DNA of 64,000 nucleotides, taken from the NCBI GenBank assembly GCA_964642855.1, contig CAZXSK010000010.1:3711-67710 (forward strand), in the 5' to 3' direction. Made by a program: the position numbers and the translations under genes. Source of the DNA: an uncultured Planctomycetaceae bacterium. GTDB lineage: Bacteria; Planctomycetota; Phycisphaerae; SM23-33. Shown here piece after piece: positions 15,901 through 58,800 of the stretch. The first letter of the stretch is position 1, and each line of letters starts with the position of its first letter. The notes beneath the pieces were generated by a model. The model saw only the letters and a program-made list of their open reading frames with translations. It did no database searches and was not told the origin of the DNA.

Positions 15901-18390
15901 GATCGGCCCGAGGTCGGCGAGTGAACGACTGGCGCTTGGAATGGCCTTTGCCACCGCCGAATAGGACGAGTTCAGATCCGTCGGCGGATCCCCGAATGTC
16001 TGATGCGCCCGGACCCGGTAGAAGTACGGCATGCCCGCGGTGGGCACGTCATCGATGAAGAAGATCCGATCGCCGGTGTCGCCCGTAGTGGCACTGGAGT
16101 GTGTGCCAATCTCCGTCCATACGTCGTGATCGAGAGATCTTTCGATCCGGAAGTAGTCCTCGGTGGTCGACATGTCCGTCCAGGAGAGCACGATCTTTGA
16201 GTCATCACCCGACACTGCCGACGCTGTCACGCTCATGGGGGTGGCAGGGCCTGACGGAACAGACGCGGCGAATGACGTGTCCGCCAGCACCAGCCCGAAG
16301 TGAGGATGCGATCCGTCGTAGTGATCCTCGTACACGGCGATGGTGAAAGTTTCGTGGCCCGCAAGATCGACGTACACGTCCTCCAGCACAGCAGCGTCGC
16401 CGGCCCCGTAGGAGAGATTGCCCTCATAGAGCAGTTCGGGGCTCGTCCCGAAGCGGCCATCGGCCCCCCGGACGAAACTCCCGAACACCTTCAGCCTCAG
16501 ATTCCGGGCCGTGGCCTGCGTGAAATCTCCCCGGCTGGGGTCCAGGAAAGCATCGAAGGTCAGTACCTGCTTGCCGCTGTCAACCGAGGGAGCGAAGAAC
16601 GTGCAATAGGAGTCGGGATTGGTATACGCGATGCCTCCGTAGAAGCCCAAGCCACCCGACGCACTCGTGCCGTCCGGCCTCTGGAAGCTCGACCCATCGT
16701 ACCAGGAATCCACGTATACGCCGTTTCGCTGCTCCCCGTCGCTGCCGAACTCCTCGACGATGGGAGTGAGAACTGCCGGCGACGGCAGGCTGGAGGCCGT
16801 CGCAGAGACCACAGGCGTGAACTGACTCCACCCGTCGGGCACTTCGTCGTTGTCAGTGTCCACGTATCCACGGACCCTGTACCAGTAGGTATTGCCCGCC
16901 ACAGCCGACGTGTCCTGCCATGTCTCCCAGTTCACAACTCCCCCGTTGGTACCCGAGACATCGTGCAGTGCCCACGTCTGGCCGCCATCGGCGCTGCGAT
17001 GGATCTCGAAACCATCTTCGCCGGAGACATCGTCGTACCAGAAGAGGCCCGTCCTGTTGCCATCTCCACCGATGGCCGAGGCGACCAACCCCCGGCCGGC
17101 TCCCGCCAGCTCGTTCGGGTTCGACGTCACGAACTCCGCATCGCCAAAGACCACCCCCCCGTGAAGCCCCGGCGAGACGAACGTGTCGGTATCCAGCTGA
17201 ATCGTAAAGGACGTCCGCGTTCCGAAATCCACGTAGATGTCGTCGTGCAACGGGGCATCGTCAGCCCCGAGCGTTACGTTGCTCTCGAAAAGAACCGACC
17301 CCCCGGAGACAATCCTGACGTGCATCCGTTCGCCGCTGATCGCCGGGAAGTCGCCTGCGCCGGCGTCTGCGAACAGGTCGAACCGGAGCACGCGGTTGGC
17401 CTCCGGAAGCTCCGTCAGGTCATACGTGGCTGAAAGCCCGGGGTAGAAGCCGTCGCCGTAATAGAACCCCACGCCCTCGCTGTAGGCCTGGCCGGACTGC
17501 GTCATGAACTGCGAGCCGTCCCACCACTGCCGCGCATGGACCCCGCTGTTGGGGTCGACGTCGCCGGAAGCCACGGTGACTGAGGGGGTCATGTCCGCAA
17601 GAGCGGTGTACGAGTCCAGATCCACGGTGAACTCCGTCCACCGTTCCCACAGCCGTGTGGAGCCCCACGTGTCCGCGTCGTTCAGTATGCCGACCGCGGT
17701 GATATCCGTGAAATCCGCCGTCGCCACATTGAAGGGACCTGTCTGATCGAAGTCCAGCCCCGCCACGTCGGACGTGGGGGCATAGGCCGCCCAACTCATG
17801 TTCATCAGGTCATCGCCGGTCAGCCAGTTGACCCCTGACCCGAACGTGCCCTGCGAGACGTAGAAGTCGCTGCCATCCCGCACGACCCACCTTCCGGTCC
17901 CGCCCGGATAGACGACGTTCAGCCGGAGGTAGGTATCACTGTCGAACGTGATCGGCTGGCCGGGGTCATTCAGGAAGTCTTCCTTCTTCCAGTAGAACAG
18001 GGAGTGATAGGAACGGGCGGTCCCTTCCGACGTCTGGAACCGGATATTCACAAGCCCGTCACCTTCCACCCGGTAGTTGTCGAAGTTCTCCGTGGCAGTC
18101 CCGTCGTGCGCAATCCCCACAACACCACCATAGAAGCGGGAACTCGTTCCCAAGTGGCTGGGCTGACCCTCACGGAAGGCGACCGAGTCACTGAAAAGCC
18201 GGCCTGCAGCTTGATCGTCCGCCAGGCCGTCGCCGTCGAAATCGCCGGCGTACGCGGTATAGGCATCGAGACTGGGCGTGCCCGAATAGTCGCCGCCCCA
18301 ATCCACGAGGACGGTACCGGACAGCAGCAATCGAGGTTCCAGAGATTCGAGAGAGAATACGGATGGACACGGGCTGGCCTTCGGTTCCAT
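12913..18390 (-). CDS. Large surface protein: LEPR-XLL motif, 3x (NPCBM-like + FN3), beta-propeller, FN3, dockerin-like domain
   Basis: LESLEPRLLLS; FN3 motifs (W.D.S..EDGF.IER..Y.YRVRAY); GDLDRSG..DGDSDGD EF-hand-like pair; GGAGG RBS before ATG 18390. Confidence 0.85.
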   Translation of the reverse strand: MEPKASPCPSVFSLESLEPRLLLSGTVLVDWGGDYSGTPSLDAYTAYAGDFDGDGLADDQAAGRLFSDSVAFREGQPSHLGTSSRFYGGVVGIAHDGTATENFDNYRVEGDGLVNIRFQTSEGTARSYHSLFYWKKEDFLNDPGQPITFDSDTYLRLNVVYPGGTGRWVVRDGSDFYVSQGTFGSGVNWLTGDDLMNMSWAAYAPTSDVAGLDFDQTGPFNVATADFTDITAVGILNDADTWGSTRLWERWTEFTVDLDSYTALADMTPSVTVASGDVDPNSGVHARQWWDGSQFMTQSGQAYSEGVGFYYGDGFYPGLSATYDLTELPEANRVLRFDLFADAGAGDFPAISGERMHVRIVSGGSVLFESNVTLGADDAPLHDDIYVDFGTRTSFTIQLDTDTFVSPGLHGGVVFGDAEFVTSNPNELAGAGRGLVASAIGGDGNRTGLFWYDDVSGEDGFEIHRSADGGQTWALHDVSGTNGGVVNWETWQDTSAVAGNTYWYRVRGYVDTDNDEVPDGWSQFTPVVSATASSLPSPAVLTPIVEEFGSDGEQRNGVYVDSWYDGSSFQRPDGTSASGGLGFYGGIAYTNPDSYCTFFAPSVDSGKQVLTFDAFLDPSRGDFTQATARNLRLKVFGSFVRGADGRFGTSPELLYEGNLSYGAGDAAVLEDVYVDLAGHETFTIAVYEDHYDGSHPHFGLVLADTSFAASVPSGPATPMSVTASAVSGDDSKIVLSWTDMSTTEDYFRIERSLDHDVWTEIGTHSSATTGDTGDRIFFIDDVPTAGMPYFYRVRAHQTFGDPPTDLNSSYSAVAKAIPSASRSLADLGPIAIDIPHTVNPAAGAYEDSWFDGSALQASDGTVFSDGVGVLFSLAPFSGIDLTYYVPEGEDIFRMDLFSDPAFNSGNRPEVEIYGDYGTSNQTLLAFYTAATSDVIEDIYLGVDGYTSLTFAFGADQWGWTSSYRNMVMANAGFVDSYPPGPLPPSFLKAGAAPVERIELRWQDNSTDEDGFLVERAYLDPDDGLQPWEQIAELASDTAYYNDTGLQVDSTYYYRVRAYNGEGQSPWSNIAINTTNARTDDFDVLTSTYVGGDGEDAGMAVDIQDDGTIVWAGILDEGFAPGGLVATELLGGGDSAVVRYDQTGTQLLSLTRLPGTAGFYYQDGDKTSYAAPDGIWDMELAASGDIALAVRNTGLVVLSSDASSVLWSAGNPTYGAGEDAASYSIKRVAAGDGVVAAIYSNPSAGYDHYVLVFENDHDDTDGVLDGELIAERHLGDTALEDVAIHASSQLVYVCGYNNKFTSAEPAQVNFVRAFDYTGDMSSYEWKLYDWPGSTLRPGVQAPNVADSRGYRISIGRDGNLYYLGESAGGNSTFLFDPQDASVRLDGSVFYQSDAYNSAYNTASNHITFIGRYDAYTGAIDKATWLIARLSGGAGNTIRSRGITADEDGNVYVAGVSAYAIENRNGKMVEGQATGSYSGDGFLLQLHSSFAFRTIWTSLAESGNSGWSIKRPGGYGIATRNGLTAAAISLDSEDGRVITTANAAQPERGSSDESYLVTWGGWADQMYAPQLQASQSGANTASLEWVDNASLKNYFLVERKEEGGAFQEIGQLGKTVFAFEDIDLTTGTTYTYRVRAHRLSGDVYSPYSNEVSVTVQQYQPGDLDRSGSVSFLEAATVVARIGRTPATWEDGDSDGDSVVTVIDADAAVASYLSETIPPRAPSSSTVLTAWQEQPMAEEDLHVEMIDAAGAAGDQQVSTASEPLGFLTHRPEIAPGLSGSGRHAQPAGRQQGNRHAIGAPDGAAFRPDATSEDLVNVLDLLALEVPLG

Positions 18391-18661
18391 TTTCGCCTCC
18401 GGGTAGAAAAGCCGTCCGCCCTCGGGACCTCGATCTCGACGAGCAGTCGGCAACTCCGCTGAAATGATGCATGCATTATCCAGCGGAAGGCTGGAGGCGT
18501 CAATACGAAGCAACTCCGGAGATGGGGAAAAGGAGGTGTCCCGCCACGGAAGACAGAGCGAGGAAGGGAGTAGAGAGTATAGCGAAGCAGCGAGCGCCCC
18601 TCCGTGGGACGCCCGCTGCCTCAGGCTTTACGCGTGCCTGATAGGGGGGTGGTCTGGTTAC

Positions 18662-19402
18662 CTATTGTGCCGCTGCCCGCCGTCGACGCCGGAGGACGAA
18701 TCCCAGCCCGCCCAAGGCCATCACCGCGCAGGTGCCGGGTTCGGGAACACTGGGCGAGGTGACCACGGAGAAGTTGTCCACCGACAGCGTGGCTCCGCGC
18801 CGGCTGGAGAAGCCCAGCTTCCGTGAGGAACGGAAGGAGTCCATCCCGCCCGTGAAGACCAGGCCGATATCGTCGGCATCGGCGAGCACCTGTTCGAATG
18901 TTCTGCTGTGAGCGGCCTGGTTCGGCCACTCGATGAAGTTCGAGGACGTCAAGGCGATGGTATGGTTGGTCCATCCCGTATCGTGATTGGGGTTCCAACT
19001 GACCAGGTCGGAGGAGACGAAGTAGTCGTTCCTGCCGCCGTCGTTGGCGCCCACGTAGAATCGCACGGTCGGGCTTCCGCCCCGGGACTCCACGGAACCT
19101 TCGAGCAGGAAGTCCAGGCTGAGCGTGCCTCCGGTCAGGTCGCCGTAGGCATCGGCCGTCGCAGGCTGCATGCCGTACAGCCTCCATCCTCCGCGGCGAA
19201 CGTCAGCGGAAGCGTACCCACCGGCACGACTGGACTCATTCCACTCCGGGGCCTGCTGTCGGACCCGGCCGCCGTTGTTGATCTCCCACGCCTGCCAGTC
19301 TTGCGTTCCCTGGTCGAAGGTCTCCACGAAATCGCCGTAGACGGACGAGACAGCCGCAAGTACACAGAGTGATACCACAGAAACACGCACGAATCGACTC
19401 AT
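18662..19402 (-). CDS. PEP-CTERM sorting domain protein
   Basis: Signal peptide and C-terminal VPEPGTCAVMALGGLGFVLRRRRR. Confidence 0.9.
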   Translation of the reverse strand: MSRFVRVSVVSLCVLAAVSSVYGDFVETFDQGTQDWQAWEINNGGRVRQQAPEWNESSRAGGYASADVRRGGWRLYGMQPATADAYGDLTGGTLSLDFLLEGSVESRGGSPTVRFYVGANDGGRNDYFVSSDLVSWNPNHDTGWTNHTIALTSSNFIEWPNQAAHSRTFEQVLADADDIGLVFTGGMDSFRSSRKLGFSSRRGATLSVDNFSVVTSPSVPEPGTCAVMALGGLGFVLRRRRRAAAQ

Positions 19403-19573
19403 CGCCAAGCTCCCTGGCCTGCTGGCATCAACTGCACGCCCCGCGCTACACACGCGACCCGCCTGCAGATCTGCAGCAGCCACAGCCCTTTTCGAGTGCT
19501 ACAGGGGGAAGGTACGATTTGCCGGGGAGGAAGCCAAAACGGCTTGGGGTTTTCTGCCTGCAGAGCGGAGCGC

Positions 19574-45942: not shown

Positions 45943-46626
45943 TCAGGCCTTCCCCCTGCCCGCAACAGCCGCCACAACCCACCACCCGGCTGCCACGCCA
46001 GGCCAAGCCAGCCAGGCCCAGATGGGTTTCGGCAGCAGGTGACCTTGCCTGGCACCGGCAGCCGCCCAGACGAAAAAGGACGGGGACAATCGCCACAGCG
46101 TCGACGAGCCCGCGCCGGACAGGAAGTCTGCTGACACATACCAGCACACAGGCAGCCCGGCGAAAACGACAAGGATGACCAGAAGCGAAGAAGCCCTTGC
46201 AGCCGGAGTCGAGGGCAACAGGCCCGCTGCCAGTGAGAGTGGTACCACCGCCAGCACGGCAAGCCCCGCACGAAATGCGTCTGTCGCCACTGCATCGCCC
46301 AGGTAGGTAGCCGTTGCATAGAACGGACAGGCTGTCACCGCAAAGCCAACCAGCTCGACCAGTGACAGCACGTTGAGTCCACAGCTGGTTCGACGTCGCG
46401 CATAGAGCATCGCCGGATAGAGCGTAAGCAGGAATGCTGCCTGGGCAATGGCGAGGGTATGTAACGCGGGAAGCGCTGCGGAGCGAGCAGAACTCCGAGC
46501 CTCATAGACCGCGTCGGGGAACAGTCCAGCAGCCATCCCAACCAGGCAAGCCGCCATCCACGCGACACCCGCGGGCCTCCAGAGGGCTTCCAGCAAGCAC
46601 CGTTGATTGCAGGGGTCTCGCGACAC
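45943..46626 (-). CDS. Hypothetical multi-pass membrane protein at the end of the dcw cluster
   Basis: About 6 hydrophobic segments; starts 4 nt after the ftsQ-like stop. Confidence 0.6.
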   Translation of the reverse strand: MSRDPCNQRCLLEALWRPAGVAWMAACLVGMAAGLFPDAVYEARSSARSAALPALHTLAIAQAAFLLTLYPAMLYARRRTSCGLNVLSLVELVGFAVTACPFYATATYLGDAVATDAFRAGLAVLAVVPLSLAAGLLPSTPAARASSLLVILVVFAGLPVCWYVSADFLSGAGSSTLWRLSPSFFVWAAAGARQGHLLPKPIWAWLAWPGVAAGWWVVAAVAGRGKA

Positions 46627-46630
46627 GAAA

Positions 46631-47695
46631 TCAGTAGGGGTCGTACGTCAAGTTGTCGCCACGCAGATTGATCGTACGGGCCTCCCCGGCAAGCTGCCCG
46701 CCATGACGCCGGACGAACTCGTCGAGATTGTCCATCTTCCGATCCGGATGCACAACCCAGTCACCGCCGGCATCGGGGAATCGGCCGAACTCAATTACCG
46801 TAGGCCGGGACTTGCCCTCTTGGGCGCAGAACTTCAGCTGTGGCTCGCGACGGGTACGCGGCGTTACCCTCCAGCCGTAGTTGCTGACATCAATCCACGT
46901 GACCTCCCTCCAGTATCGCCGGGAGTGCAGGAGTCTTGCCAACCGAATGCCGGCCTGGAGGTCTTCCCCCGGCCAGCGCTCGCCCGGATCAGGCGGCGCA
47001 CTGAGGACGCCGTCGATCAGGATGTAATGAATGCTACCGACCTGCACGCCGCAGTCTGGAACCTGGTTGCCATTGGCAAGGCAATACTTCTCGTCCTTGG
47101 TCCCACCCAAGGGGGCAACAACCAGCCGGGGGACTTCGTAGTACTGCACCGCGCCGGTAGGCGTTGCGTAGGCCCTCCCGTCGCGTAGAAGCACGCCGTC
47201 CTCGTCTACGAAGTAGATTTGGCGTTCAAAACGTACGGCTACCACCGGCCGGCGGAAGGTTGCCTGCACCTCCACCAACCCGAGATTGGGATCGCTTGTT
47301 TCCTGTTTCCGCACCAAATGGACCTGGCGGATCCAAGGGTGCCTCTCGGCCAGGGCGTGCACCCGGCGAACGAGATTGCGCGAGTAAAAAGTCATCCCCT
47401 CCGGTGCGAGTTCCCGGCAAATGCGCGCATTGACCGAAGGCGGAAGCCACATCGGCGTGTCGGCAAGTGTCACGCGAAACGCAGGCGGCGTCCGGCCGAA
47501 TTCTCCGGTCCGTACGCGGTGTTCCAACACCTTCATGCCCCATGCAGCCGACGCCCCGCAGACGATTACCAGCAGTGCCCAGATCGTACCCTTGACCAAG
47601 CGTCTGCGCCTGCCCGACGTGTCTGCATCCCACACGTCATGAAGAGATTTCTTCCTGCGCTTGCTCTCGGCTGGCTTCTTCTGCTTCCTTGCCAT
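46631..47695 (-). CDS. ftsQ: FtsQ/DivIB-like cell division protein
   Basis: Basic N-tail, single TM, POTRA-like segment (HPWIRQV..V), R.PVVAV..YFVDEDGVLL, terminal I.LR; position after ddl. Confidence 0.75.
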   Translation of the reverse strand: MARKQKKPAESKRRKKSLHDVWDADTSGRRRRLVKGTIWALLVIVCGASAAWGMKVLEHRVRTGEFGRTPPAFRVTLADTPMWLPPSVNARICRELAPEGMTFYSRNLVRRVHALAERHPWIRQVHLVRKQETSDPNLGLVEVQATFRRPVVAVRFERQIYFVDEDGVLLRDGRAYATPTGAVQYYEVPRLVVAPLGGTKDEKYCLANGNQVPDCGVQVGSIHYILIDGVLSAPPDPGERWPGEDLQAGIRLARLLHSRRYWREVTWIDVSNYGWRVTPRTRREPQLKFCAQEGKSRPTVIEFGRFPDAGGDWVVHPDRKMDNLDEFVRRHGGQLAGEARTINLRGDNLTYDPY

Positions 47696-47706
47696 GGCAT
47701 CCTGCG

Positions 47707-48687
47707 TCAGTTTGGTGTTTTCTGAACCCGATCGCTCCGGCGATCCATCGCCATCATGACCAATCGATCTACCAGTTCTGGGAAGGAACAACCCGCCTTC
47801 GCAGCGGCCTTGGGCACCAGAGAATGACCGGTAAAGCCCGGGATCGTGTTGATCTCCAGCACGTGCGGTGTTCCGTCGGCGGCTAGAATAAAATCGACCC
47901 GAGAGAGGTCACGGCAGTTCAGCACGCGGTGAGCTTCGAGAGCGTCGTGCTGGAGGCGACCGACGACCTGTGCGTCCAAGCCGTGATCGAAGACATACTC
48001 GGTGCCTGCTCCGTCTTCGTATTTGGCGGGGTAATCGTAGAAAGGTCGCTGGCAACAAACCTCAAGTGCAGGCAGAGGCTGGTCGCCCAGAATGCCGATG
48101 GTCATCTCTCGACCGGGTACGAATCGCTCCAGCATCGCCCTGCCGTAGAGGTCGAACAGTTCCTCGATGGCTTCGCGTCGCTGTCGATCGTCGCGGGCAA
48201 TGGTCACATGCACGCTCGACCCGCCGTCGACTGGCTTGACGACCACGGGAGGGGGTATCTCGTCCAGCCATCGATTGACCGTGCTCGGGTCGTGATACTC
48301 CTCGACGATCATCCAGTCGGGGGTGGTCAGACCGACCACGCGGAACAATTGCTTCGCAGCGGCCTTGTCCATAGCCATCTTGCTGGCCCGAGGCCCGGAC
48401 CCCACGTACGGAAGCGACCGCTGCTCGCAAAGCTCCTGGACTTCCCCGGACTCGCCGAAAACACCGTGCAGAGCAATGAACACAACATCGATGCCCGCGC
48501 GATCCAGCGCGGAAGTGTCGTTAGGAGCAATATCGGCACGCGTGACCTGGTGTCCTGCCTGCTCGAGCGCGCATGCGACGGCCTGGCCGCTCATCAATGA
48601 GACTTGCCGCTCCGACGAAGGCCCTCCCATCAGGACCGTGACGTCCAGGGGGCGGACCGTTTTGAAAAGGGCTTCACTGCCTTCCAT
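47707..48687 (-). CDS. ddl: D-alanine--D-alanine ligase
   Basis: GGPSSER.VSL.SG, ALHG.FGE.G, MDK..K, VVKP..GGSS, EINT.PG.T..S. Confidence 0.96.
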   Translation of the reverse strand: MEGSEALFKTVRPLDVTVLMGGPSSERQVSLMSGQAVACALEQAGHQVTRADIAPNDTSALDRAGIDVVFIALHGVFGESGEVQELCEQRSLPYVGSGPRASKMAMDKAAAKQLFRVVGLTTPDWMIVEEYHDPSTVNRWLDEIPPPVVVKPVDGGSSVHVTIARDDRQRREAIEELFDLYGRAMLERFVPGREMTIGILGDQPLPALEVCCQRPFYDYPAKYEDGAGTEYVFDHGLDAQVVGRLQHDALEAHRVLNCRDLSRVDFILAADGTPHVLEINTIPGFTGHSLVPKAAAKAGCSFPELVDRLVMMAMDRRSDRVQKTPN

Positions 48688-48706
48688 GGCAACTTCCTTG
48701 CGACAC

Positions 48707-49585
48707 CTACCACACTTCCAACTCGAGTTCCAGGTAGACGCCGGCACTGTCGTACACCTGATCTCGAATCGTGTTGACCAGTTTCAGTACGTCCGACGCC
48801 GTCGCGCCCGGATCGGCCAGAATGAAGTTCGCATGCTTCTCCGAGACATACGCGCCCCCGACCCGTCTTCCTTTCAGACCTGCCCGATCGATCAGGGCAC
48901 CCGCCGACAGGCCACGCGGGTTCTTGAACACACAACCAGCGTTCCTGCTGCCCAGAGGCTGGGTGTTCTTCTTGTAGATCCAGATCTGCTTGACCTGCCG
49001 AAGGATCCGTTGAGGGTCGTCCTCGGCGAGATTGAACTCCGCCGACAGAACGTACTTGGACGTAATGTTCGTCGATCGATAGGCGAAGGCCAGATCGTCG
49101 GAGTAACGGGTGAATACCTCACCCTCTTCGGTCATGACCTGGACGCTGGCGATCGCGTTGCCGATATCACCAAATGCACCGCCCGCGTTCATTCGCACGC
49201 ACCCGCCAATGCTGCCCGGGATACCCGTCAGCCCCTCAAGCCCGGAAAGCCCTTCCCGTACGCACCGAAGGACCAGTCGACCCATGTCGGCCCCGGCCAT
49301 GGCGTGCACCCCGCCGTCGACGAGAGTGACGTTCTTGAACGCCCCTTCGGTCAGGTGCATCACCGCACCCTTCACTCCGGCGTCGTCAATCAACAGGTTC
49401 GCACCCGAACCCAGCACGCGGGTAGGGATCTCGTTTTCGTGGCAGAGAATCGTCAGTTCGCGAAGCTCATCAATCGTCCGCGGTTCCATGAAATACTGGG
49501 CGTTGCCACCGATACCCAGCCAGGTATACGGCGCAAGAGGAACATCCTGCCTCGCGATTTCCTTGTATTCGTCGAACAGTCCCAT
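48707..49585 (-). CDS. murB: UDP-N-acetylenolpyruvoylglucosamine reductase
   Basis: LG.GANLLI.D.G, GLEGL.GIPGSIGG..MNAG, NAGCVFKNP, KHANFI, LE.E. Confidence 0.96.
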   Translation of the reverse strand: MGLFDEYKEIARQDVPLAPYTWLGIGGNAQYFMEPRTIDELRELTILCHENEIPTRVLGSGANLLIDDAGVKGAVMHLTEGAFKNVTLVDGGVHAMAGADMGRLVLRCVREGLSGLEGLTGIPGSIGGCVRMNAGGAFGDIGNAIASVQVMTEEGEVFTRYSDDLAFAYRSTNITSKYVLSAEFNLAEDDPQRILRQVKQIWIYKKNTQPLGSRNAGCVFKNPRGLSAGALIDRAGLKGRRVGGAYVSEKHANFILADPGATASDVLKLVNTIRDQVYDSAGVYLELELEVW

Positions 49586-49629
49586 CGGCGTATCTGCAGC
49601 ACTTCCTTGTCTTGTGACGTGCTTTGGCC

Positions 49630-51060
49630 TCAGTCTTCGCATTCCAGCCAACGCACGATCCGATCGGCGATATTCCACACGTTCCCTGCCCCCATCGTCA
49701 CGCACAGGTCACCCGGGGCAAGCGAATCCTCCAGACGCTCAACGATCTCGTCGAACGTCTCGACGTAGCTGGCGGCTCCGCCATGCAGACGGATCTGCGC
49801 GACGAGGTCCTCACTGGAAATGTAATCCTTCTCCCTGTCCGAGTCCCGCACAAAATAGATGTCGGGCACAATGACCTCATCAGCCAGGGCAAAACTGCGC
49901 GCGAAGTCCTTCAGAAGGAATCGCGTCCTGCTGTGCTGGTGAGGCTGGAATACACACCGGACCCGCCGGGGTTGATAGAAGTCACGAAGGGCCCGTAACG
50001 TGGCCTGGACCTCTGTGGGATGGTGCGCGAAGTCATCGACAACCGTAATGCCCCCGACCTGGCCTTTGAGTGTCATCCGGCGGCGAGGTCCGGTGTAGTT
50101 GCCCAGGATCGTCACAATCCGCTCGGGCTCAATACCCGCATGGTGCAGAAGCCCCACCGCCGCCAGCGAGTTGTACGCGTTGTGAAGGCCCGGCAGTGGA
50201 ACTGCCAGGTGAGCGTAATGCTGCCCACCCTTCTCGATGTCCATCCGCAGGCGACCTCGGTCAGACGTCAGGTTCACACCCCGCCAGTGGCAATCCTCGG
50301 CGAAGCCAAACGTCTCCACCTCGCAACTGGCCGTACGAACTGCCTCGATCGCGCTGCGGTCCTCTCCGTTGACCACCAGCACACCGGCAGGATCCATGCG
50401 TGCCGCGAAGGCTCGGAACGCCTCGATAATCGCCGACAGGTCGGCGTAGCAATCCAGATGGTCCTCCTCCACGTTCAGGATGCCGGCGTAAAGCGGGCGG
50501 AGGTTCAGGAAGCTCCGATCGTACTCGCACGCTTCGGCTACGAAATAGCGCCCTTCGCCGACGCCGCTGGGCCCGCCGAGTTGCTCAACGGTCGCACCGA
50601 CGACATAGCTCGGGTCGGTTCCCGCGCGGTCCAGAACGAAGGCCACCATTCCTGAGGTCGTGCTCTTGCCATGCGTTCCCGCCACCGCAATACCCACACG
50701 CTGGGCCATCAGCCGCCCGAGCATTTCCGAATACTTCAGAACCTCCACGCCCCGATCGATCGCCGCGACGAGTTCGGGGTTCTCCCCATGGATGGCAGCG
50801 GAGTAGACCACCAGATCGACCTGATCGGGAATGTTGGAAGGGCACTGGCCGACATGCACATCCACCCCGGAATCGCGAAGCCGCTGGACGGCGGCACTCT
50901 CGGCCATGTCCGAGCCGCTCACCCTCGCCCCATTGGATCGGAGCATGGTCGCGATAGCGCGCATGCCCGACCCGCCGATACCAATAAGATGAATGCGCTT
51001 TCCCGCGAAGGACTCTCCGCCCTGGCGACCGGCTGGTCCGTGCTGACTGCGGGTTTCCAT
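49630..51060 (-). CDS. murC: UDP-N-acetylmuramate--L-alanine ligase
   Basis: IHLIGIGGSGM, GTHGKSTTS, EACEYDRSFL, DDFAHHPTE, FQPH..SRT. Confidence 0.96.
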   Translation of the reverse strand: METRSQHGPAGRQGGESFAGKRIHLIGIGGSGMRAIATMLRSNGARVSGSDMAESAAVQRLRDSGVDVHVGQCPSNIPDQVDLVVYSAAIHGENPELVAAIDRGVEVLKYSEMLGRLMAQRVGIAVAGTHGKSTTSGMVAFVLDRAGTDPSYVVGATVEQLGGPSGVGEGRYFVAEACEYDRSFLNLRPLYAGILNVEEDHLDCYADLSAIIEAFRAFAARMDPAGVLVVNGEDRSAIEAVRTASCEVETFGFAEDCHWRGVNLTSDRGRLRMDIEKGGQHYAHLAVPLPGLHNAYNSLAAVGLLHHAGIEPERIVTILGNYTGPRRRMTLKGQVGGITVVDDFAHHPTEVQATLRALRDFYQPRRVRCVFQPHQHSRTRFLLKDFARSFALADEVIVPDIYFVRDSDREKDYISSEDLVAQIRLHGGAASYVETFDEIVERLEDSLAPGDLCVTMGAGNVWNIADRIVRWLECED

Positions 51061-51210: not shown

Positions 51211-52335
51211 CTATCCCGACGACGCGCGGTGACCCTCCACGAGCCAGCGAGCTACTTCCTTGGCCGCTCCCGCCTTTGCCACCCGCCCGGCAGCTTCGTG
51301 CATACCTCCCAGGACGCCGTCGCTATCCAGGATCGGGAGCAGTACCTTCCAGAGTCGGGCCGCATTCTCATCCGGGTCAACGGCGTCGTCGACAAGCACA
51401 ACCCCGCCTGTCTCGACCAGCTCAGCGGCATTGTGTCGTTGCTGCTGATCACGGTGATACGGATAGGGCAGAATGACCGCCGGCGTTCCCGTCACCGCAA
51501 GTTCCGCAGCCGTACCCGCACCGCATCGACAGATCGCCAGATCCGCAGCTTCATAGGCAAGATCCATACGATGGCAGTAGTCCTGCACAACGAGGTGAAT
51601 GCCTCTATCGGTAAATGCTTCTCGCAGGCGAGCCATCTTCTCGCGACGAGTGATCGCCAGCACCTGCCAATGATTCGCGTACTTCGCCAGGTCGCCGGCA
51701 AGGGCAGCAACAGCATTCGTTATCGAATCGGCCGACAGGCTTCCGCCGAACACCAGCAGCGTCCTGTGGTCGGCGCGAAGGCCGAAATGCCCGAGAGCTT
51801 CGTCTTTGGAGGCCCACGCGAAGTTGTGTCGGACCGGGCAACCCACGCTCCGAACCTTGCTGCGGAACACCCCGAACCGCTGGGTCGTAGACTCAAACTG
51901 CGTGAAGATCGTCTCGACATGCCGCGCCAGGAACCGATTGGCAAGGCCGACGACGGCATCGGGATTCAGCAGGCCTGCCCGAATGTTCATTCTGTGGGCC
52001 TGACGGACAATTGGCCCGGCGGCAAAGCCCCCCAGTCCGAGCACGGCCCGGGGGTCGAGGTCCGAGAGCATCTGCCGCGCCTGCTTCCGTGAACGCCGCC
52101 AACGGCGAAGGAACCGTCCCCATCCACCGAAACCGCGCGGCACGGGGACCACAGGCTGAGGGACCATCGCGTGGGGCGTGGTTTCCAGGACCCGCCGGTC
52201 AATCTCGCGATCACTGCACGCGAACACGACCCGCACGCCACGTTCGATCCGAAGCAGTTCGTCAGCCACAGCCAGCCCCGGATACAGATGGCCTCCCGTT
52301 CCGCCCCCCGCGAAGATGTAGATCGCCTCGTGCAT
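51211..52335 (-). CDS. murG: Lipid II N-acetylglucosaminyltransferase MurG
   Basis: GGGTGGHLYPG, GLGGF..GP, GCPVR, FGGSL, CRCGAGT.AEL, QQ..NA. Confidence 0.94.
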   Translation of the reverse strand: MHEAIYIFAGGGTGGHLYPGLAVADELLRIERGVRVVFACSDREIDRRVLETTPHAMVPQPVVPVPRGFGGWGRFLRRWRRSRKQARQMLSDLDPRAVLGLGGFAAGPIVRQAHRMNIRAGLLNPDAVVGLANRFLARHVETIFTQFESTTQRFGVFRSKVRSVGCPVRHNFAWASKDEALGHFGLRADHRTLLVFGGSLSADSITNAVAALAGDLAKYANHWQVLAITRREKMARLREAFTDRGIHLVVQDYCHRMDLAYEAADLAICRCGAGTAAELAVTGTPAVILPYPYHRDQQQRHNAAELVETGGVVLVDDAVDPDENAARLWKVLLPILDSDGVLGGMHEAAGRVAKAGAAKEVARWLVEGHRASSG

Positions 52336-52351
52336 CCGATTTCTGTCCTGA

Positions 52352-53269
52352 TCAGGCCTTGACCTTCAGGCAATAGTCGAAGAATCCGATCGCCTCCAGC
52401 TCCCCACGAAGCGATGTGAGTTCCTGGGAAGAGAAACTCCGTTCGGGCGTTCGGACCGGCCCACAGTCCAGGCCCGCGAGTTTGACCATCGCCTTGCTTG
52501 CCCGCATTCCGCCGTAGCGTTCCATCACCGCGATCATCTCATCGGCGAGTTGCTGACACCTGCGGGCGGTGTGCATTTCACGTTTCTCGAACGCATCGAG
52601 GATCTGCAGGTACAGCCCCGGGGCGAAGTTGTACGTTGTGCCCACGGCACCGCGGGCACCGAGCGCCAGTCCGGCCAGAAGGAACTCGTCGCGACCGAAC
52701 AGCATGTCAAGCCGTCCCTCGTCCAACTGTACGCAACGACCGAAATCCATGAGATCCTCATGGGTGAACTTCGCTCCGACCAGCGTCGGAACAGTCTCTG
52801 CTGCGACGGTGAACAGATCGCGCAGGCAGATGTCCACCCCCGTTCGAGAAGGAATGTGGTAGTAGTACAGTGGCATATCAGGGGCCGCTGCCGATACATG
52901 GGCGATGAACACCACCAACGAGCTGACATCTGCGGGCCTGTGGTAGCTGGGTGGAGCCAGCGCGATCGCCGCTGCACGGTTCTCCGCGGCGTGCCGGGCC
53001 AACGTGCAGGCATCGCCGGCAGCGTTGGCTCCCACGTGGATGATCACGGGGAAGTCTTCTGAGGCCAGTCTCGTCCAGCGTTCCGCCACCCTCATTCGCT
53101 CGTCTACGGTAAGCGAGAGTCCCTCGCCGGTGGTCCCGCATACAAACGCCCCGCGAACGCCGTTCTCCTCCAGTACCTCTCGCTGGTTCTCTAGCGTATC
53201 CAGCGCAAGCTCCCCGGCGGCGCTCATGGGTGTGTGAACAGCTGCGATCAGTCCGGTCCGTCGCTTCAT
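52352..53269 (-). CDS. N-acetylneuraminate lyase / DHDPS-family class I aldolase
   Basis: GTTGEG, YYYHIP catalytic Tyr, AKFT Schiff-base Lys, LFGRDE, GAVGTTYN. Confidence 0.88.
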   Translation of the reverse strand: MKRRTGLIAAVHTPMSAAGELALDTLENQREVLEENGVRGAFVCGTTGEGLSLTVDERMRVAERWTRLASEDFPVIIHVGANAAGDACTLARHAAENRAAAIALAPPSYHRPADVSSLVVFIAHVSAAAPDMPLYYYHIPSRTGVDICLRDLFTVAAETVPTLVGAKFTHEDLMDFGRCVQLDEGRLDMLFGRDEFLLAGLALGARGAVGTTYNFAPGLYLQILDAFEKREMHTARRCQQLADEMIAVMERYGGMRASKAMVKLAGLDCGPVRTPERSFSSQELTSLRGELEAIGFFDYCLKVKA

Positions 53270-53366
53270 GGTCGCTCCTGCACGAGTGTCGACACTCACC
53301 CCTCGGGTAAGCATACATCGAACCCACTGGACGGACAGCAGGAAATGGTGCTGCCCCGCCTGCTGA

Positions 53367-54542
53367 TCAGTCAACCTGCAGCGAGTCCGGATCGGGACGG
53401 GCCGAAACCGACACGATCAACGCCGTCGCGCCCGCCATCATGATCAGCAACGTTCCGCCAGCCGAGATGAACGGGAACTGGATGCCCGTGGGAGGAAGCA
53501 CGCACAGGACGACAGCTACGTGCAGCACGGCTTGGAGTGCAATCAGGAACCCCAGCGATCCGGCGAGTACAGCCCCGAACCGGTCACCCGCCTTCGCCGC
53601 GGCCGAGCGAGCGCAGAAGATCCACACCAGCAACAGGCCCATCAATGTGGCGGCCCCGACAAAGCCCCACTCCTCGCAGAATACGGCGAAGATGAAGTCG
53701 GTGCTGTCCTCAGGTAAGAATCCCAGCTTGCGTGTGCCGTTTCCCAAACCGCATCCCAGCCAGCCTCCCTTCGCCAGTGCGATAAGCGATTGTCCAGCCT
53801 GGTACGAAGAATGGTTGTCCTGTGACCATGGGTCCAGCATGGCCATGATGCGCGCCCATCGATGGGGGCTGCGGTAGACCAGAAAGTAGAATCCCGCCGC
53901 GGCGGGGGGAAGATATGACATCAGGTACAACAAGGGCACCCTGGCCATCCACATGGCTACGCAGGCAACTGCGCCGATGATCACGCCCGTGCCGAAGTCT
54001 TCCTTGATCACCACACCGACGCAAACAGCGGCACTCAGAGAAGCGGGAAGAAACGTACGAAGGAAATCTTTCTTGTTTGTCGAGTCCCGCGACAGCCATG
54101 CCGACAGGAACACCACCAGTGTCAGCTTGACCAACTCTGAAGGCTGAAAGCCGATACTCACCCCCGCGACGGTCGCGCGAAGCCACCGGCGAGCTCCGTT
54201 GATCTCCTTCCCAATTCCGGGCACATAGACCAAGGCAGCGCAGCCTACGGCCAGCACCAGACCCACAAGGGGAATCCAGGGCAGGCGTTTACCCCAATTG
54301 AGCTTCCGATAGTCCAGCCGCCAGCTAAGAAGAAACACCAAAGCGGCAACTCCCGCGAAGACTGTGTTGCGCATGTCGACTCGCTGATACCAGCGGGCGG
54401 GAACCGACGCCACCGACGCCAGCGCGCTATGAACCATCACCACGCCAATGCCAAGCAGCACAAGCGTCGTAAGAATCAGTGCCTGCCCCGCCGGATTGCT
54501 CCGCAGGGCAAGCGTCAGGTTCGGCGTTGGCCTCCGTGCCAT
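53367..54542 (-). CDS. ftsW: Peptidoglycan glycosyltransferase FtsW (SEDS family)
   Basis: NGARRW, FQPSELVK, EDFGT, YQ..QSL.A...GG..G.GLG, FLPE..TDFIFA...EE.G, P.TG...PF.S.GG. Confidence 0.93.
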   Translation of the reverse strand: MARRPTPNLTLALRSNPAGQALILTTLVLLGIGVVMVHSALASVASVPARWYQRVDMRNTVFAGVAALVFLLSWRLDYRKLNWGKRLPWIPLVGLVLAVGCAALVYVPGIGKEINGARRWLRATVAGVSIGFQPSELVKLTLVVFLSAWLSRDSTNKKDFLRTFLPASLSAAVCVGVVIKEDFGTGVIIGAVACVAMWMARVPLLYLMSYLPPAAAGFYFLVYRSPHRWARIMAMLDPWSQDNHSSYQAGQSLIALAKGGWLGCGLGNGTRKLGFLPEDSTDFIFAVFCEEWGFVGAATLMGLLLVWIFCARSAAAKAGDRFGAVLAGSLGFLIALQAVLHVAVVLCVLPPTGIQFPFISAGGTLLIMMAGATALIVSVSARPDPDSLQVD

Positions 54543-54605
54543 GGTCCTTCTTCTGTATCGTCAGCGGCAGGGATTTCTCTCCACCGCATCAACTCTTTCG
54601 TTCCT

Positions 54606-54635
54606 GTCCGCCTTCGACCGGTCCGCCTTCGACCG
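54606..54635. repeat. 15-bp perfect tandem repeat
   Basis: GTCCGCCTTCGACCG x2 in the mraY-ftsW spacer. Confidence 0.85.
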
Positions 54636-54641
54636 GACGCC

Positions 54642-55766
54642 CTAGCTCTTGAGCTTAAGCGTCGCCAGAGCGATGGCTGCAAATGCGATGCTCAGCAACC
54701 AGAACCTTGTAACCACCTTATTCTCCGCCCAGCCTCCCAGATGGAAATGATGGTGAAGTGGTGCACAGCGGAAGATCCGCTTGCCGCCGATTCCACCCGG
54801 CCCCTTGGTGAGTTTGTAGTAGCCCACCTGCAAAATCACGCTGACAGCCTCCATCACAAATACCCCTCCAGCGATGAACAGCAGGCACTCCTGACGGGTC
54901 ACCACGGCGATGAATCCCAGCAGGCCTCCCAATGGCAGGGATCCGGTATCGCCCATGAACACCTGGGCCGGGTTGGCGTTGTACCACAGAAAACCAAGGC
55001 ATCCTCCGAGCATGGCCCCGCACAAGATCGTCATCTCTGCTGATCCCGCCACGAAAGGCATATCGAAAAAAGCCGCCCAGGCTCGAACACCTACGATCCA
55101 CGCGAGAAGAAGGAATACCATCGAGACGATGCCCAGGCACCCCGCTGCCAAGCCGTCCATCCCATCGGTCAGATTCACCGCATTGGACGAACCGACCATC
55201 ACAAGCACCACGGAAATCATGTACATCCACTTGCTCAGGGCAATCGGTTCAGCGAGGAACGGCAGGTAGAATCCATGCGCCGGGTTGATGAGCTCCTGCC
55301 CTTCGTACACATGAGACGCCCCACCGTATTTGTACATGAACGGACTGAGCACGATTGCCACGCCGATCTGGAACAGCAATTTCTCCCAACTCTTCAAGCC
55401 ATCGCGCGTTCCTTTACCCGCCTGATGCCGCAACTTCAGCCAGTCGTCCAGTCCCCCAAGCGTCCCAAGCCAGATCAGTGCGAGCACGCCCATGCGGATG
55501 TACATGTTGTAGAGGTCCGCGAACAACAACACTGACACGAGCATCGCGGGAACGATCAGGACCCCGCCCATTGTGGGCGTATTGGACTTGTGGCGAGTCA
55601 GTTCATTGAGGTCTGCATGGTCGAACTCAGGTCGATCTCCGAGTTTCATCTTGATCAGAACACGAATCAGCCTTGGCGCGAAGATCATTACCAGGGCGAA
55701 AGATACAACCGCCGCTCCCGTGATACGTAACAGCAGGTGCTTGCCGCCCAGTACCCAGTAGATCAC
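54642..55766 (-). CDS. mraY: Phospho-N-acetylmuramoyl-pentapeptide transferase
   Basis: K..TPTMGG, G.LDD, SNAVNLTDG.DGLA, FMGDTGS, APLHHHF. Confidence 0.96.
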   Translation of the reverse strand: MIYWVLGGKHLLLRITGAAVVSFALVMIFAPRLIRVLIKMKLGDRPEFDHADLNELTRHKSNTPTMGGVLIVPAMLVSVLLFADLYNMYIRMGVLALIWLGTLGGLDDWLKLRHQAGKGTRDGLKSWEKLLFQIGVAIVLSPFMYKYGGASHVYEGQELINPAHGFYLPFLAEPIALSKWMYMISVVLVMVGSSNAVNLTDGMDGLAAGCLGIVSMVFLLLAWIVGVRAWAAFFDMPFVAGSAEMTILCGAMLGGCLGFLWYNANPAQVFMGDTGSLPLGGLLGFIAVVTRQECLLFIAGGVFVMEAVSVILQVGYYKLTKGPGGIGGKRIFRCAPLHHHFHLGGWAENKVVTRFWLLSIAFAAIALATLKLKS

Positions 55767-57190
55767 GCGTGCGTCCCCTCCTCGCCTCGCTGGTCTCCCC
55801 GCTGAGTATCCTCTGCGCCCATCTCGCTGGCGATCGCCCGGACAACCCGCTCCATTCGCATGGAACGGGAGCCTTTCACCAGCACCAGGTCACCGGGCCT
55901 CAGCCAATCGCACACGTCGTCCATGACCTGCTCCACCGTCAAGTAGGTCCGTGTCTGCTGGTCCTCTTTCGCTGCTCCCTCCGCCAACTTCACCCCCAAC
56001 TCACCGACCCCGATGACCAGATCCAGCCCGCGCCGGGCTACGTCAAGCCCGGTCTCCAAGTGCAACTGCTCCGCCTGGTCGCCGAGTTCGCACATATCTC
56101 CGGCTATGAGCACCCGGCGTTTCGCGTCGTTGTCGACCAGCACATCCGCCGCGGCGACCATGCTGGCGGGGTTGGCGTTGTAGGCGTCGTTGATCACGGT
56201 CACCTCACCGGCATCGGTCCACTCCAGCCGCATTGCTTCGCCGGTGAAATCCGCCAGTGCCTCGGCGGCTTCGTCCTGAGAGAACCCAAACCGCTGGGCA
56301 ACGGCAATAGCCGCCAGCGCATTGAGTGCGTTATGATGCCCGGCAACGGGAAGGTCTGCCCAGAGGCGATTGTTGACCTCAAACCGCACGCCTCGTCCGG
56401 ATGGTTCGTAGCCGGTCAGACGAATGTCGGCTTCCTCAGCCTCGCCGAAAAGGATCACCCGCTCACGGTAGGCTCCCAAGCTGCGACGAAGCACATCGCT
56501 GTCCGCCGTGACGACTGCCATGCCGCGCTGCCGGAGTCGCCCCAACAACGATGCCTTCTCACTGGCGACACGATCCACGCTGCCCAGCCCCTCCAGGTGC
56601 GTCGCCGAGCAGGACGTAATCACAGCCACGTTCGGCTCGCACGCAGCAGCAAGTCTGGAGATCTCGCCCGGGGCGCTCGTGCCCAGTTCGACGACCACGT
56701 AATCATCACTCAGACCGGCATCCAGCAAGGTCAATGGGACGCCGATCCGGTTGTTGTAGCTCATCGGGCTGCACGAGCCCTTGAGTTTCTTGCCGAGGAC
56801 ATGATGGATCATCCGCTTGACCGTGGTCTTGCCATTGGAACCGGTCACCGCAACGACGTCGGCAGAACCCGCTTTGCGGTTGGCCGCCCCCAGTTCCATC
56901 AGTGCCTGGTGAGTGTCCAACACCCCGATGATCCCGCCATAAAAGAGGCAGGACACTTCATCGGGCACCTTTACGTCCCGACGAATCACCGCCGCTACGC
57001 ACCCCTTCTCGCCGGCCTCCCGCAGGAAGTTGTGGCCATCGAAGTGCTCGCCGGGAATCGCAACGAACAGGTCACCGTCCCTTGCGGTTCTGCTGTCGAT
57101 GCTCACATTGCCCACCATCAGGTCCCCGCCGGAGCTTAATCGCCACCCGCGGACCACCTTCCGGATTTCTTCCATCGTCAGGGGCTTCAT
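55763..57190 (-). CDS. murF: UDP-MurNAc-tripeptide--D-Ala-D-Ala ligase
   Basis: IDSR, DGH.F, TGSNGKTTVK, NN.IGVP.TLL, INDAYNANP.S, GDM.ELG, KGSR. Confidence 0.95.
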   Translation of the reverse strand: MKPLTMEEIRKVVRGWRLSSGGDLMVGNVSIDSRTARDGDLFVAIPGEHFDGHNFLREAGEKGCVAAVIRRDVKVPDEVSCLFYGGIIGVLDTHQALMELGAANRKAGSADVVAVTGSNGKTTVKRMIHHVLGKKLKGSCSPMSYNNRIGVPLTLLDAGLSDDYVVVELGTSAPGEISRLAAACEPNVAVITSCSATHLEGLGSVDRVASEKASLLGRLRQRGMAVVTADSDVLRRSLGAYRERVILFGEAEEADIRLTGYEPSGRGVRFEVNNRLWADLPVAGHHNALNALAAIAVAQRFGFSQDEAAEALADFTGEAMRLEWTDAGEVTVINDAYNANPASMVAAADVLVDNDAKRRVLIAGDMCELGDQAEQLHLETGLDVARRGLDLVIGVGELGVKLAEGAAKEDQQTRTYLTVEQVMDDVCDWLRPGDLVLVKGSRSMRMERVVRAIASEMGAEDTQRGDQRGEEGTHA

Positions 57191-58656
57191 GCCCGCTCCT
57201 CTCGCTGCTGCAATGCCTCAGACGCTACGGCTACGTCGTCGAAGTCGCTCCACTCGTCGCCCACCACCTGGTAGGTTTCGTGGCCCTTGCCGGCGATCAG
57301 CACAACGTCGCCGTCTTCGGCCATGGCCACGGCATGGGCGATCGCCTGGCCTCGATCGACAAGCACATCGGACCGCGTTCTGCCGTCGGAGTCCAATCCG
57401 CCGACGATTTCTCCGATGATCACGCGAGGATCCTCGCTGCGCGGGTTATCGCTGGTAATCACCAGCCGGTCAGCAAGATCCTCGGCCACCTGCGCCATCC
57501 TTGGCCTCTTCGTGCGGTCACGGTCGCCTCCGCATCCGAACACCACGATCAGCCGTCCCCGGGTAACCGGCCTCAAAGACCGCAGCACATTCCGCAGCGC
57601 ATCGTCGGTGTGGGCATAGTCCACGAACACGTCGAAGCCGGCGTCATTGTGCACGCGCTCAAGCCGCCCGGCTACGCAGGAAACGTTGGCCAGGGAGTCG
57701 GCGATAGTCTCAAGGCCCACCCCGAGGGCAAGGGACGCACCACTGGCAGCGAGGGCATTGTACACATTGTGACGGCCGATCAAGGGCGTAACCACCCGGA
57801 CCTCACCGAGAGGCGTCACCAGATCCAGTTTGCTTCCGGTGGCATCCATCCCGTGGACTCGCCCGCGAACCTGTGAAAGCGGATTCAGACCGTACCAGCT
57901 TATCTCCGCAGGGGTGGCCTGCGCGATGGCTTCACCAGCCGGATCGTCACGGTTGATTACCGCCGCGGCCCGAGGCGACAGACGTTCGAAAAGGAGCCGC
58001 TTGGCCCCAAGGTAGTTCTCCATCGTCTCGTGGTAATCCAGATGGTCGCCCGAGAGGTTGGTGAATACCCCAACGTCGAAACCCACGCCAGCCGTTCGGT
58101 CCTGATGCAGAGCATGGGACGAAGCTTCCATTACGAGATGTGTCCTGCCCGTCCGGACCATCTCATCGCACAACTCCGCCAGAGATACTGGATCCGGGGT
58201 GGTCGTCCCCGCCGGACGGACTCGAGCGCCCGTGTCGTAGCGAATAGTTCCCAGAAGCCCGACCCGGTGGCCTGCTCCCTCCAGGATGGCACGAACCAGG
58301 TGAGCGACCGTAGTCTTGCCGTTGGTTCCCGTGATGCCGACGCACGTGAGCTTCCGCGAAGGCCAGCCAAGAATGGCCTGCGCCAGTTTACCGCATGCCG
58401 ATCGGGAATCGGCCACGATTGCGTGCGGCACGCCCTCCGGCACTCGCGATGGATCCTCACATGCGACCGCCGCCGCGCCGCCCTCAATGGCGGCTTCGAT
58501 GAACTCGTGCCCGTCTCGGGCCCACCCTCGAACCGCCACGAAGCACGATCCTGCCCTGCACGCGCGCGAATCGATCACAACGTCCGAGACGTCGGCGTCT
58601 CCGGAGAGTTCGGCGGGAGTCAGGCCCGCCTGCTGAAGCAACTGGGAAAGCCGCAT
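57187..58656 (-). CDS. murE: UDP-MurNAc-dipeptide--meso-DAP ligase
   Basis: GITGTNGKTT, TTPD, MEASSHAL.Q.R, DYAHT.DA, GCGGDRD..KR, DNPR (meso-DAP specificity motif), GKGHE.YQ. Confidence 0.96.
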   Translation of the reverse strand: MRLSQLLQQAGLTPAELSGDADVSDVVIDSRACRAGSCFVAVRGWARDGHEFIEAAIEGGAAAVACEDPSRVPEGVPHAIVADSRSACGKLAQAILGWPSRKLTCVGITGTNGKTTVAHLVRAILEGAGHRVGLLGTIRYDTGARVRPAGTTTPDPVSLAELCDEMVRTGRTHLVMEASSHALHQDRTAGVGFDVGVFTNLSGDHLDYHETMENYLGAKRLLFERLSPRAAAVINRDDPAGEAIAQATPAEISWYGLNPLSQVRGRVHGMDATGSKLDLVTPLGEVRVVTPLIGRHNVYNALAASGASLALGVGLETIADSLANVSCVAGRLERVHNDAGFDVFVDYAHTDDALRNVLRSLRPVTRGRLIVVFGCGGDRDRTKRPRMAQVAEDLADRLVITSDNPRSEDPRVIIGEIVGGLDSDGRTRSDVLVDRGQAIAHAVAMAEDGDVVLIAGKGHETYQVVGDEWSDFDDVAVASEALQQREERA

Positions 58657-58800
58657 CACCACATCCCGTCTACGCCAGGAACCACGCGAGAGCGGGTAAT
58701 CATATCGCCGTCCGGGGCCGTCGTGGACCGTCCACGACGGACCCCGGACCAACGCTGGGTTCCAACATACCACGTTCCGCGCCCCAGAGGAGGGCCTGCC

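Follow-up and report, generated by a model that had tools for sequence, protein, structure and literature searches.

A putative sialic-acid lyase gene with a DapA-type arginine in the peptidoglycan operon of an uncultured planctomycete

A 64 000-nucleotide stretch of DNA (hereafter the window) from an uncultured Planctomycetaceae bacterium (GenBank assembly GCA_964642855.1, contig CAZXSK010000010.1, positions 3711–67 710) carries an aldolase gene at 52352–53269 on the reverse strand, inside the cluster of genes for cell division and wall synthesis (dcw). The encoded protein resembles N-acetylneuraminate lyase (NAL; NanA or NPL) and has, at position 142, the arginine found in dihydrodipicolinate synthase (DHDPS; DapA). 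The account we favour, and hold to be fairly probable, is that the dcw operon here carries, as an accessory gene, a sialic-acid lyase that works as such, in which Arg142 is a tolerated and recurrent substitution. On this account, Arg142 is not a mark of a switch to DapA function. An earlier note, written from the bare sequence, had proposed a natural NanA-to-DapA convert supplying diaminopimelate (DAP) to cell-wall synthesis, and we weigh that proposal below together with two other alternatives.

The gene encodes a 305-residue class I aldolase of the DHDPS/NAL superfamily (PF00701, E = 4.3e-43) that, by its sequence and predicted fold, is an NPL-type N-acetylneuraminate lyase. In a phmmer search against the PDB the best matches were NALs (6h4e, 6arh, and 5afd; E-values 7e-61 to 2.5e-58), with DapA structures at ∼1e-24 or weaker. 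Foldseek, run with an AlphaFold model of the lyase (pLDDT 93.7), placed NAL chains at all of ranks 1–44, with a TM-score of 0.93 to 6h4e, and the first DHDPS at rank 45. Both rankings agree with the NanA/NPL-type assignment of the earlier note, and the motifs that it quoted are all found (LYYYHIPSRTGV, MLFGRDEFLL, and GAVGTTYN). The protein stays under all NCBIfam equivalog cutoffs. With the dapA model (TIGR00674) it scores 116.8 bits, far under the cutoff of 206.15; seven relatives of the same Planctomycetes–Verrucomicrobia–Chlamydiae (PVC) subfamily, whose residue 142 is Met, Leu, or Arg, score 104–135 bits, so the window protein resembles DapA no more than they do. In a published placement, NanA of Planctomycetes, Verrucomicrobia, and Bacteroidetes adjoins the eukaryotic and Vibrio clades (PMC2693436).

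The gene is real and functional, and it is under purifying selection. Comparison with a 90%-identical copy gives the lyase a dN/dS of 0.15 (0.17 for murG and 0.03 for murC), and its GC content at third codon positions (GC3) matches that of the neighbouring genes. The same protein occurs on a 15-kb contig of another metagenome-assembled genome (MAG; GCA_054922075.1).

Active-site columns were matched using a MAFFT alignment with E. coli NanA and DapA (both from MG1655), and residue roles were taken from PMC5380162 (Table 2) and PMC3014015. The catalytic and sugar-binding residues of NAL are all present, and invariant or near-invariant across the family. They comprise, on the reverse strand, the Schiff-base lysine Lys167 (codon 52769–52771; column of EcNanA K165 and EcDapA K161, invariant in both alignments), the catalytic Tyr137 (52859–52861), the GxxGE pyruvate-carboxylate binding motif G45-T-T-G-E49 (53123–53137; role from PMC5380162), the segment G192-R193-D194-E195 (52685–52696), whose Gly, Asp, and Glu serve sugar recognition in NALs (EcNanA G189, D191, and E192), and Thr211 (52637–52639; column of EcNanA Ser208 in the GSTYN/GTTYN motif). 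The Ser-to-Thr exchange in this last column is frequent in the close family, with Ser dominant among broader representatives. Judged from these conserved residues, sialic acid in its open-chain form would be bound by Lys167 as a Schiff base at the 2-keto group, Tyr137 would relay the proton, Thr46 and Thr47 of GTTGE would hold the carboxylate, and Gly192, Asp194, Glu195, and Thr211 would hold the polyol tail; retro-aldol cleavage would then release N-acetylmannosamine (ManNAc) and pyruvate.

The genomic company of related lyases is consistent with this chemistry. Homologues in a large protein database number in the thousands, and the best 120 are 50–57% identical to the window protein, apart from two near-identical sequences (99% and 90%); the best match among 185 579 species representatives is 54%. 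Those that are named or labelled belong chiefly to Planctomycetota and Verrucomicrobiota, with some Armatimonadota and others. We surveyed neighbours at 80 genome loci, with open reading frames (ORFs) called by a GC3-based script and a Pfam scan that took in 94 adjacent same-strand ORFs of the 73 loci outside dcw clusters. Sialidase-type repeats (BNR_2, BNR_3, or BNR) were found in 19 of these ORFs, followed by MFS (9), SSF (8), NanM (8), and GntR/FCD (5) families. As predicted from these matches, the neighbourhood of the family outside dcw clusters is that of classical sialic-acid catabolism, and the published placement of PVC NanA beside eukaryotic NPL agrees with it (PMC2693436).

The lyase reads Y137-H-I-P-S-R142, with the arginine codon CGA at 52844–52846 (reverse strand), where the earlier note had located it, and the alignment puts this residue in the column of EcNanA Leu142 (YNIPALSG) and EcDapA Arg138 (YNVPSRTG). 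The engineered L142R change shifts E. coli NanA toward DHDPS activity (Joerger 2003, PDB 1HL2), a point that the note had also made and that PMC5380162 and PMC3014015 confirm; the wild-type enzyme (EcNal) has measurable activity with aspartate semialdehyde (ASA) as well (PMC5380162, PMC3014015). Leu142 of EcNanA reportedly makes no contact with N-acetylneuraminate (Neu5Ac) (PMC5380162). Arg142 would lie at the mouth of the pocket, and it is one base away from the common alternatives: from Met by ATG to AGG and from Leu by CTN to CGN.

Among 208 close-family sequences, position 142 is Met in 150, Leu in 28, and Arg in 11 (a count that includes the E. coli DapA reference and several near-duplicates), the rest having Val, Phe, Ile, or Asn. 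Five close-family lineages have the arginine: the window clade (the window with loci L084 and L087; codon CGA, dcw-embedded), L085/P0046 (AGG, dcw-embedded), L010 (CGC, 5′ of murG and preceded by a GH35 gene), L086/P0084 (AGG, adjoining an MFS transporter), and L028 (CGG, outside dcw; a few genes upstream is a BNR_2 match that stays under the Pfam cutoff). When 1.84 billion cluster representatives were searched exhaustively with HMMER and the best 150 (from clustering at 50% identity) were read at this position, 14 (9%) had Arg142. One of these (P0248) lies directly 3′ of a BNR_2 gene; the closest Arg-bearing representative (P0121) has lspA and a DksA-type gene as neighbours, which are uninformative, and the contig of P0191 is too short for a reading of this kind.

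An FtsW tree makes L015/L016 the sister lineage of the window (100% bootstrap); the lyase of L015/L016, in the same slot, has Met142. Because this sister lineage has a Met142 lyase in the slot, we infer that the arginine arose inside a lineage that already carried the dcw insertion; elsewhere, it seems to arise in ordinary sialic-acid contexts. A covariation of Arg142 with a His81-to-Ala/Gly change, seen in four of the five Arg lineages of the close family (p ∼ 0.005), was lost in the 50%-identity representatives, 7 of whose 14 Arg members keep His81, and was therefore dropped as an argument.

Several observations weigh against a plain sialic-acid lyase with a tolerated substitution. With the NCBIfam NanA models the window protein scores well below cutoff (NF003164, 123.4 versus 281; TIGR00683, 90.3 versus 382); the seven PVC-subfamily relatives all fall under the NanA cutoffs too (126–165 bits), and these models therefore do not cover the subfamily. 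Searching the 64-kb window for other sialic-acid genes turned up no transporter, NanM, epimerase/kinase, or sialidase. The lyase is kept in the operon across lineages at ∼53% FtsW identity, which hints at selection for its location. Arg142 is found in 3 of 10 dcw-embedded lineages versus 2 of 75 non-dcw genome loci (naive Fisher p = 0.011, kinship ignored); p becomes 0.066 when L010 and L085 are merged into a single event, and, set against the base rate of 9%, a share of 3 of 10 lacks significance. Finally, the DHDPS substrate set is also complete in the alignment (R142, G192, D194, T46/T47, Y137, K167, and Y109 in the column of DapA Tyr107), so that on paper the protein looks like a naturally occurring L142R NAL that could carry out both chemistries.

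The complete DHDPS set and the nominal arginine excess in dcw-embedded copies would suit a quite different role, in which the Arg142 lyase is the physiological synthase of 4-hydroxy-tetrahydrodipicolinate (HTPA), a non-orthologous DapA supplying meso-DAP to MurE. So would the gain of DHDPS activity by engineered NanA and the position of the gene inside a peptidoglycan operon whose MurE (57187–58773, reverse strand) has the DNPR motif, located at 57439–57450 as the earlier note had reported. If this role were real, nature would have repeated the engineered L142R change, and the arginine excess would reflect selection. The comparative evidence is mostly against it, and we think it very improbable. 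Most dcw-embedded orthologues have Met or Leu at position 142, the sister lineage L015/L016 included, so the insertion is not tied to arginine, and Arg142 copies also adjoin an MFS transporter or a sialidase-like gene. The NAL sugar residues are all kept, with the NAL-specific Glu195 and Thr211 standing where DapA has Ala and Val, and the dapA-model score is no higher than those of Met142 relatives. Among close relatives the insertion is patchy, and unrelated genes occupy this junction too. The 64-kb window holds no dap genes, and tblastn with E. coli DapA found a canonical dapA neither in the window nor in any of 171 collected loci. The conversion to a DAP-supplying enzyme put forward in the earlier note is thus not borne out. 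DapA replacement is plausible as chemistry, yet nothing in the comparisons ever requires it, and its prospects are slight; we give equally little credence to a narrower form, in which the dcw-embedded Arg142 lyase of a Phycisphaerae-like subset became, or moonlights as, the DHDPS of the cell. Within the account we favour, promiscuous DHDPS activity of the window lyase is plausible, and Arg142 probably raises a side activity with ASA.

Coordinates and Pfam matches confirm the genomic setting described in that note, with the lyase between ftsW (53367–54542; PF01098, E = 2.4e-77) and murG (51211–52335; PF03033 and PF04101, the N- and C-terminal GT28 domains), all on the reverse strand. The spacer to ftsW measures 97 nt (53270–53366) and contains an AGGAG ribosome-binding site 7 nt 5′ of the lyase ATG at 53269; the spacer to murG measures 16 nt (52336–52351). 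The dcw order runs ftsI, murE, murF, mraY, ftsW, lyase, murG, murC, murB, ddl, and a gene in the ftsQ position. Neither spacer flanking the lyase contains a terminator-like or sigma-70-like site, and co-transcription with the operon is therefore plausible and, in our view, probable.

The order ftsW–lyase–murG, sometimes with extra genes, recurs in about 10 lineages (the window, L084, L087, L002, L015/L016, L081/L082/L120, L083, L085, L097, L098, L106, and L108) whose FtsW is 52–66% identical to that of the window. When operons were sampled via FtsW instead of the lyase (FtsW at least 44% identical, junction readable, n = 32), 27 had a direct ftsW-to-murG junction and 5 had the lyase. On the conservation of this arrangement, which the earlier note had raised, the answer is therefore divided: the order does recur across lineages, but only a minority of related operons has it. 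In the FtsW tree, L002, which has the lyase and a BNR_2 gene, is sister to L122, which has the direct junction (100% bootstrap). Between the window and L015, the lyase is 52% identical, compared with 66% for FtsW and 63% for MurG, so it diverges faster than its neighbours. Neighbour-joining trees of the lyase (100 bootstraps for the 88-sequence set) have a star-like backbone, in which one and several dcw insertions are not distinguishable. Extra cargo at the junction includes the BNR_2 gene 3′ of the lyase in L002 and L083. These patterns fit an insertion-tolerant ftsW|murG junction that captured accessory genes, of which the lyase would be the most persistent. Under the account we favour, the lyase gene would have landed in this junction in a Phycisphaerae-like lineage and been kept there, probably co-transcribed. 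In our literature search, no paper described a NAL gene within the dcw cluster of a planctomycete.

Other loci show further genes around this site. In L083 (8121–9910) and L106 (4142–6012), an AAA_21/AAA_15 ATPase and a ∼210-residue partner with no Pfam match lie between the lyase and murG, a pair that looks like a defence- or toxin–antitoxin-type module. In L094 (7273–11345), the genes that come after ftsW are those of a GFO/IDH/MocA oxidoreductase, a URO-D-like protein, and a protein with a PD40 propeller; no murG occurs within 6 kb, the operon being split at the ftsW|murG junction. In L010 (7467–12000), a GH35 beta-galactosidase-like gene stands directly 5′ of the Arg142 (VR) lyase, which is followed by murG-murC-murB-ddl, and the locus lacks the upstream half of the dcw cluster.

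Persistence at the junction can also be read as adaptive coupling, in which the dcw place of a sialic-acid lyase is itself selected because it feeds salvaged sialic acid to peptidoglycan precursors; expressed together with murG and the other mur genes, the lyase would start a route from ManNAc through N-acetylglucosamine (GlcNAc) or its 6-phosphate to UDP-GlcNAc. The earlier note had offered such a link between sialic acid or amino sugars and wall metabolism as its second option. Recurrence in about 10 lineages at such FtsW divergence suits this idea, as do the overlaps at both the ftsW/lyase and lyase/murG boundaries in L081, the continued company of lyase and murG in L010 despite the loss of the upstream cluster half, and a constraint on the lyase similar to that on murG by dN/dS. 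Against it stand the low share of related operons with the lyase, its differing presence in the close relatives L002 and L122, the unrelated cargo at the same junction, the faster evolution of the lyase relative to FtsW and MurG, and a window without epimerase, kinase, or transporter genes. We regard coupling of this kind, and with it the proposed route to UDP-GlcNAc, as possible though unlikely.

In some relatives, the lyase appears to be half of a two-gene cassette with a cytoplasmic sialidase-like gene. A conserved BNR_2 beta-propeller gene of ∼370 residues lies directly 3′ of the lyase in L002 (10902–12038) and L083 (6929–8032), both in dcw clusters, and in L004, L040, and L062 outside them, with 57–68% identity; the loci that bear it span planctomycete (Brocadiia-type) and Spirochaetes MAGs. 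Since the partner is common to dcw and non-dcw loci, the lyase and BNR_2 form a cassette independent of the dcw operon. The partner has no evident signal peptide, its N-terminus having been read by eye, and is cytoplasmic-looking and weakly sialidase-like, with an uncharacterised protein (5hx0) as its best PDB match.

Such a partner also suits the idea of a lyase of altered specificity, whose pocket Arg142 and the subfamily residue Arg193 would fit to a different 2-keto-3-deoxy acid, the candidates being another nonulosonic acid or a substrate with an anionic group on the aldehyde half. Arg193 (52691–52693) is invariant in the F-G-R-D-E motif of the PVC subfamily, of which it is a hallmark, and the column holds Val (human, Proteus, Aliivibrio) or Tyr (E. 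coli) in characterised NALs. At 22 well-conserved positions, Y109, H110, A81, V262, and E276 among them, the window lyase differs from the consensus of the family, and it ranks fifth of 78 in divergence (mean identity 50% versus a family median of 54%). The neighbourhood counts nevertheless indicate sialic-acid catabolism of the ordinary kind, and among the families counted is NanM, whose name refers to Neu5Ac; the Neu5Ac-contacting residues are all retained, and the column of Arg142 is the one whose leucine is said to leave Neu5Ac untouched (PMC5380162). A different 2-keto-3-deoxy acid therefore seems doubtful to us, and so do both kinds of candidate substrate. Accelerated evolution of the window lyase was considered separately and set aside, the effect being only mild: the protein is among the more divergent members, not an outlier.

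The dcw cluster has other features of its own. murD is not in its usual place between mraY and ftsW, either in the window (53367–55766) or in any of the ∼40 FtsW-related loci (L090–L130). The only Mur-ligase genes in the 64-kb window are murE, murF, and murC, and murD must therefore have another location in these genomes. Pfam gives no match for the gene in the ftsQ position (46631–47791), which is followed (region 45943–47791) by a 227-residue ORF, hydrophobic-looking by eye, and not by ftsA/ftsZ, which fits FtsZ-less planctomycetes. Overlaps of 4 nt occur at murE/murF and murF/mraY; longer ones between longest ORFs (47707–49705) at murC/murB (76 nt), murB/ddl (41 nt), and ddl/ftsQ-position (85 nt) may simply reflect over-extended start codons. 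Elsewhere in the window (12913–19483), an 1866-residue protein with fn3 and SBBP beta-propeller repeats adjoins a PEP-CTERM protein.

If the protein is the sialic-acid lyase we take it for, the lesson is mostly a warning: one residue of the DapA type in a NAL scaffold does not indicate a switch of function, and would be a common natural polymorphism, present in ∼9% of cluster representatives. Two points are new, both of them modest. One is a putative sialic-acid lyase that several uncultured Phycisphaerae-like lineages carry stably in a dcw operon that is otherwise conserved, in some cases together with an apparently cytoplasmic, sialidase-like partner; the other is a junction between ftsW and murG that behaves as an insertion-tolerant site in this group. 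Natural Arg142/Met142 pairs in one slot, such as the window versus L015/L016, offer a ready-made test of a one-residue NAL-to-DHDPS shift. The kind of enzyme is already known, and neither the natural Arg142 nor the location in the dcw operon makes it a new system; both are curiosities.

The closest characterised systems are human NPL (6ARH), Proteus mirabilis NAL (6H4E), and Aliivibrio salmonicida NAL (5AFD), at 35–40% identity over near-full length and TM-scores of 0.92–0.93 (Foldseek). The window lyase has the same catalytic Lys/Tyr/GxxGE set and the same motifs, YYYH(I/S)P, K-F-T, G-x-D-E, and G-S/T-T-Y-N. Unlike these enzymes, it has Arg at position 142 instead of Leu or Met and Arg193 instead of Val in GxDE, and its gene sits in a dcw operon, not in a nan cluster. 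DapA (E. coli b2478; TIGR00674) belongs to the same superfamily and has the same fold and Schiff-base chemistry with pyruvate; the equivalents of its Arg138, Tyr107, Tyr133, Lys161, Gly186, and Asp188 are all in the lyase, but overall identity to the E. coli protein is 25%, and Glu195 and Thr211 correspond to Ala189 and Val205 in DapA. The engineered E. coli NanA L142R (PDB 1HL2) likewise has Arg in the DapA-Arg138 column of a NAL scaffold and keeps Asp191, Glu192, and Ser208, as the lyase keeps their equivalents, whereas the window protein is natural, ∼25% identical to EcNanA, and a member of another NAL subfamily. CgNal of Corynebacterium glutamicum, reported as a bifunctional NAL/DHDPS (PMC5380162), is a precedent for both activities in vitro; it clusters with DHDPS and is without the Arg and the NAL sugar triad, whereas the window protein clusters with NAL and has both sets.

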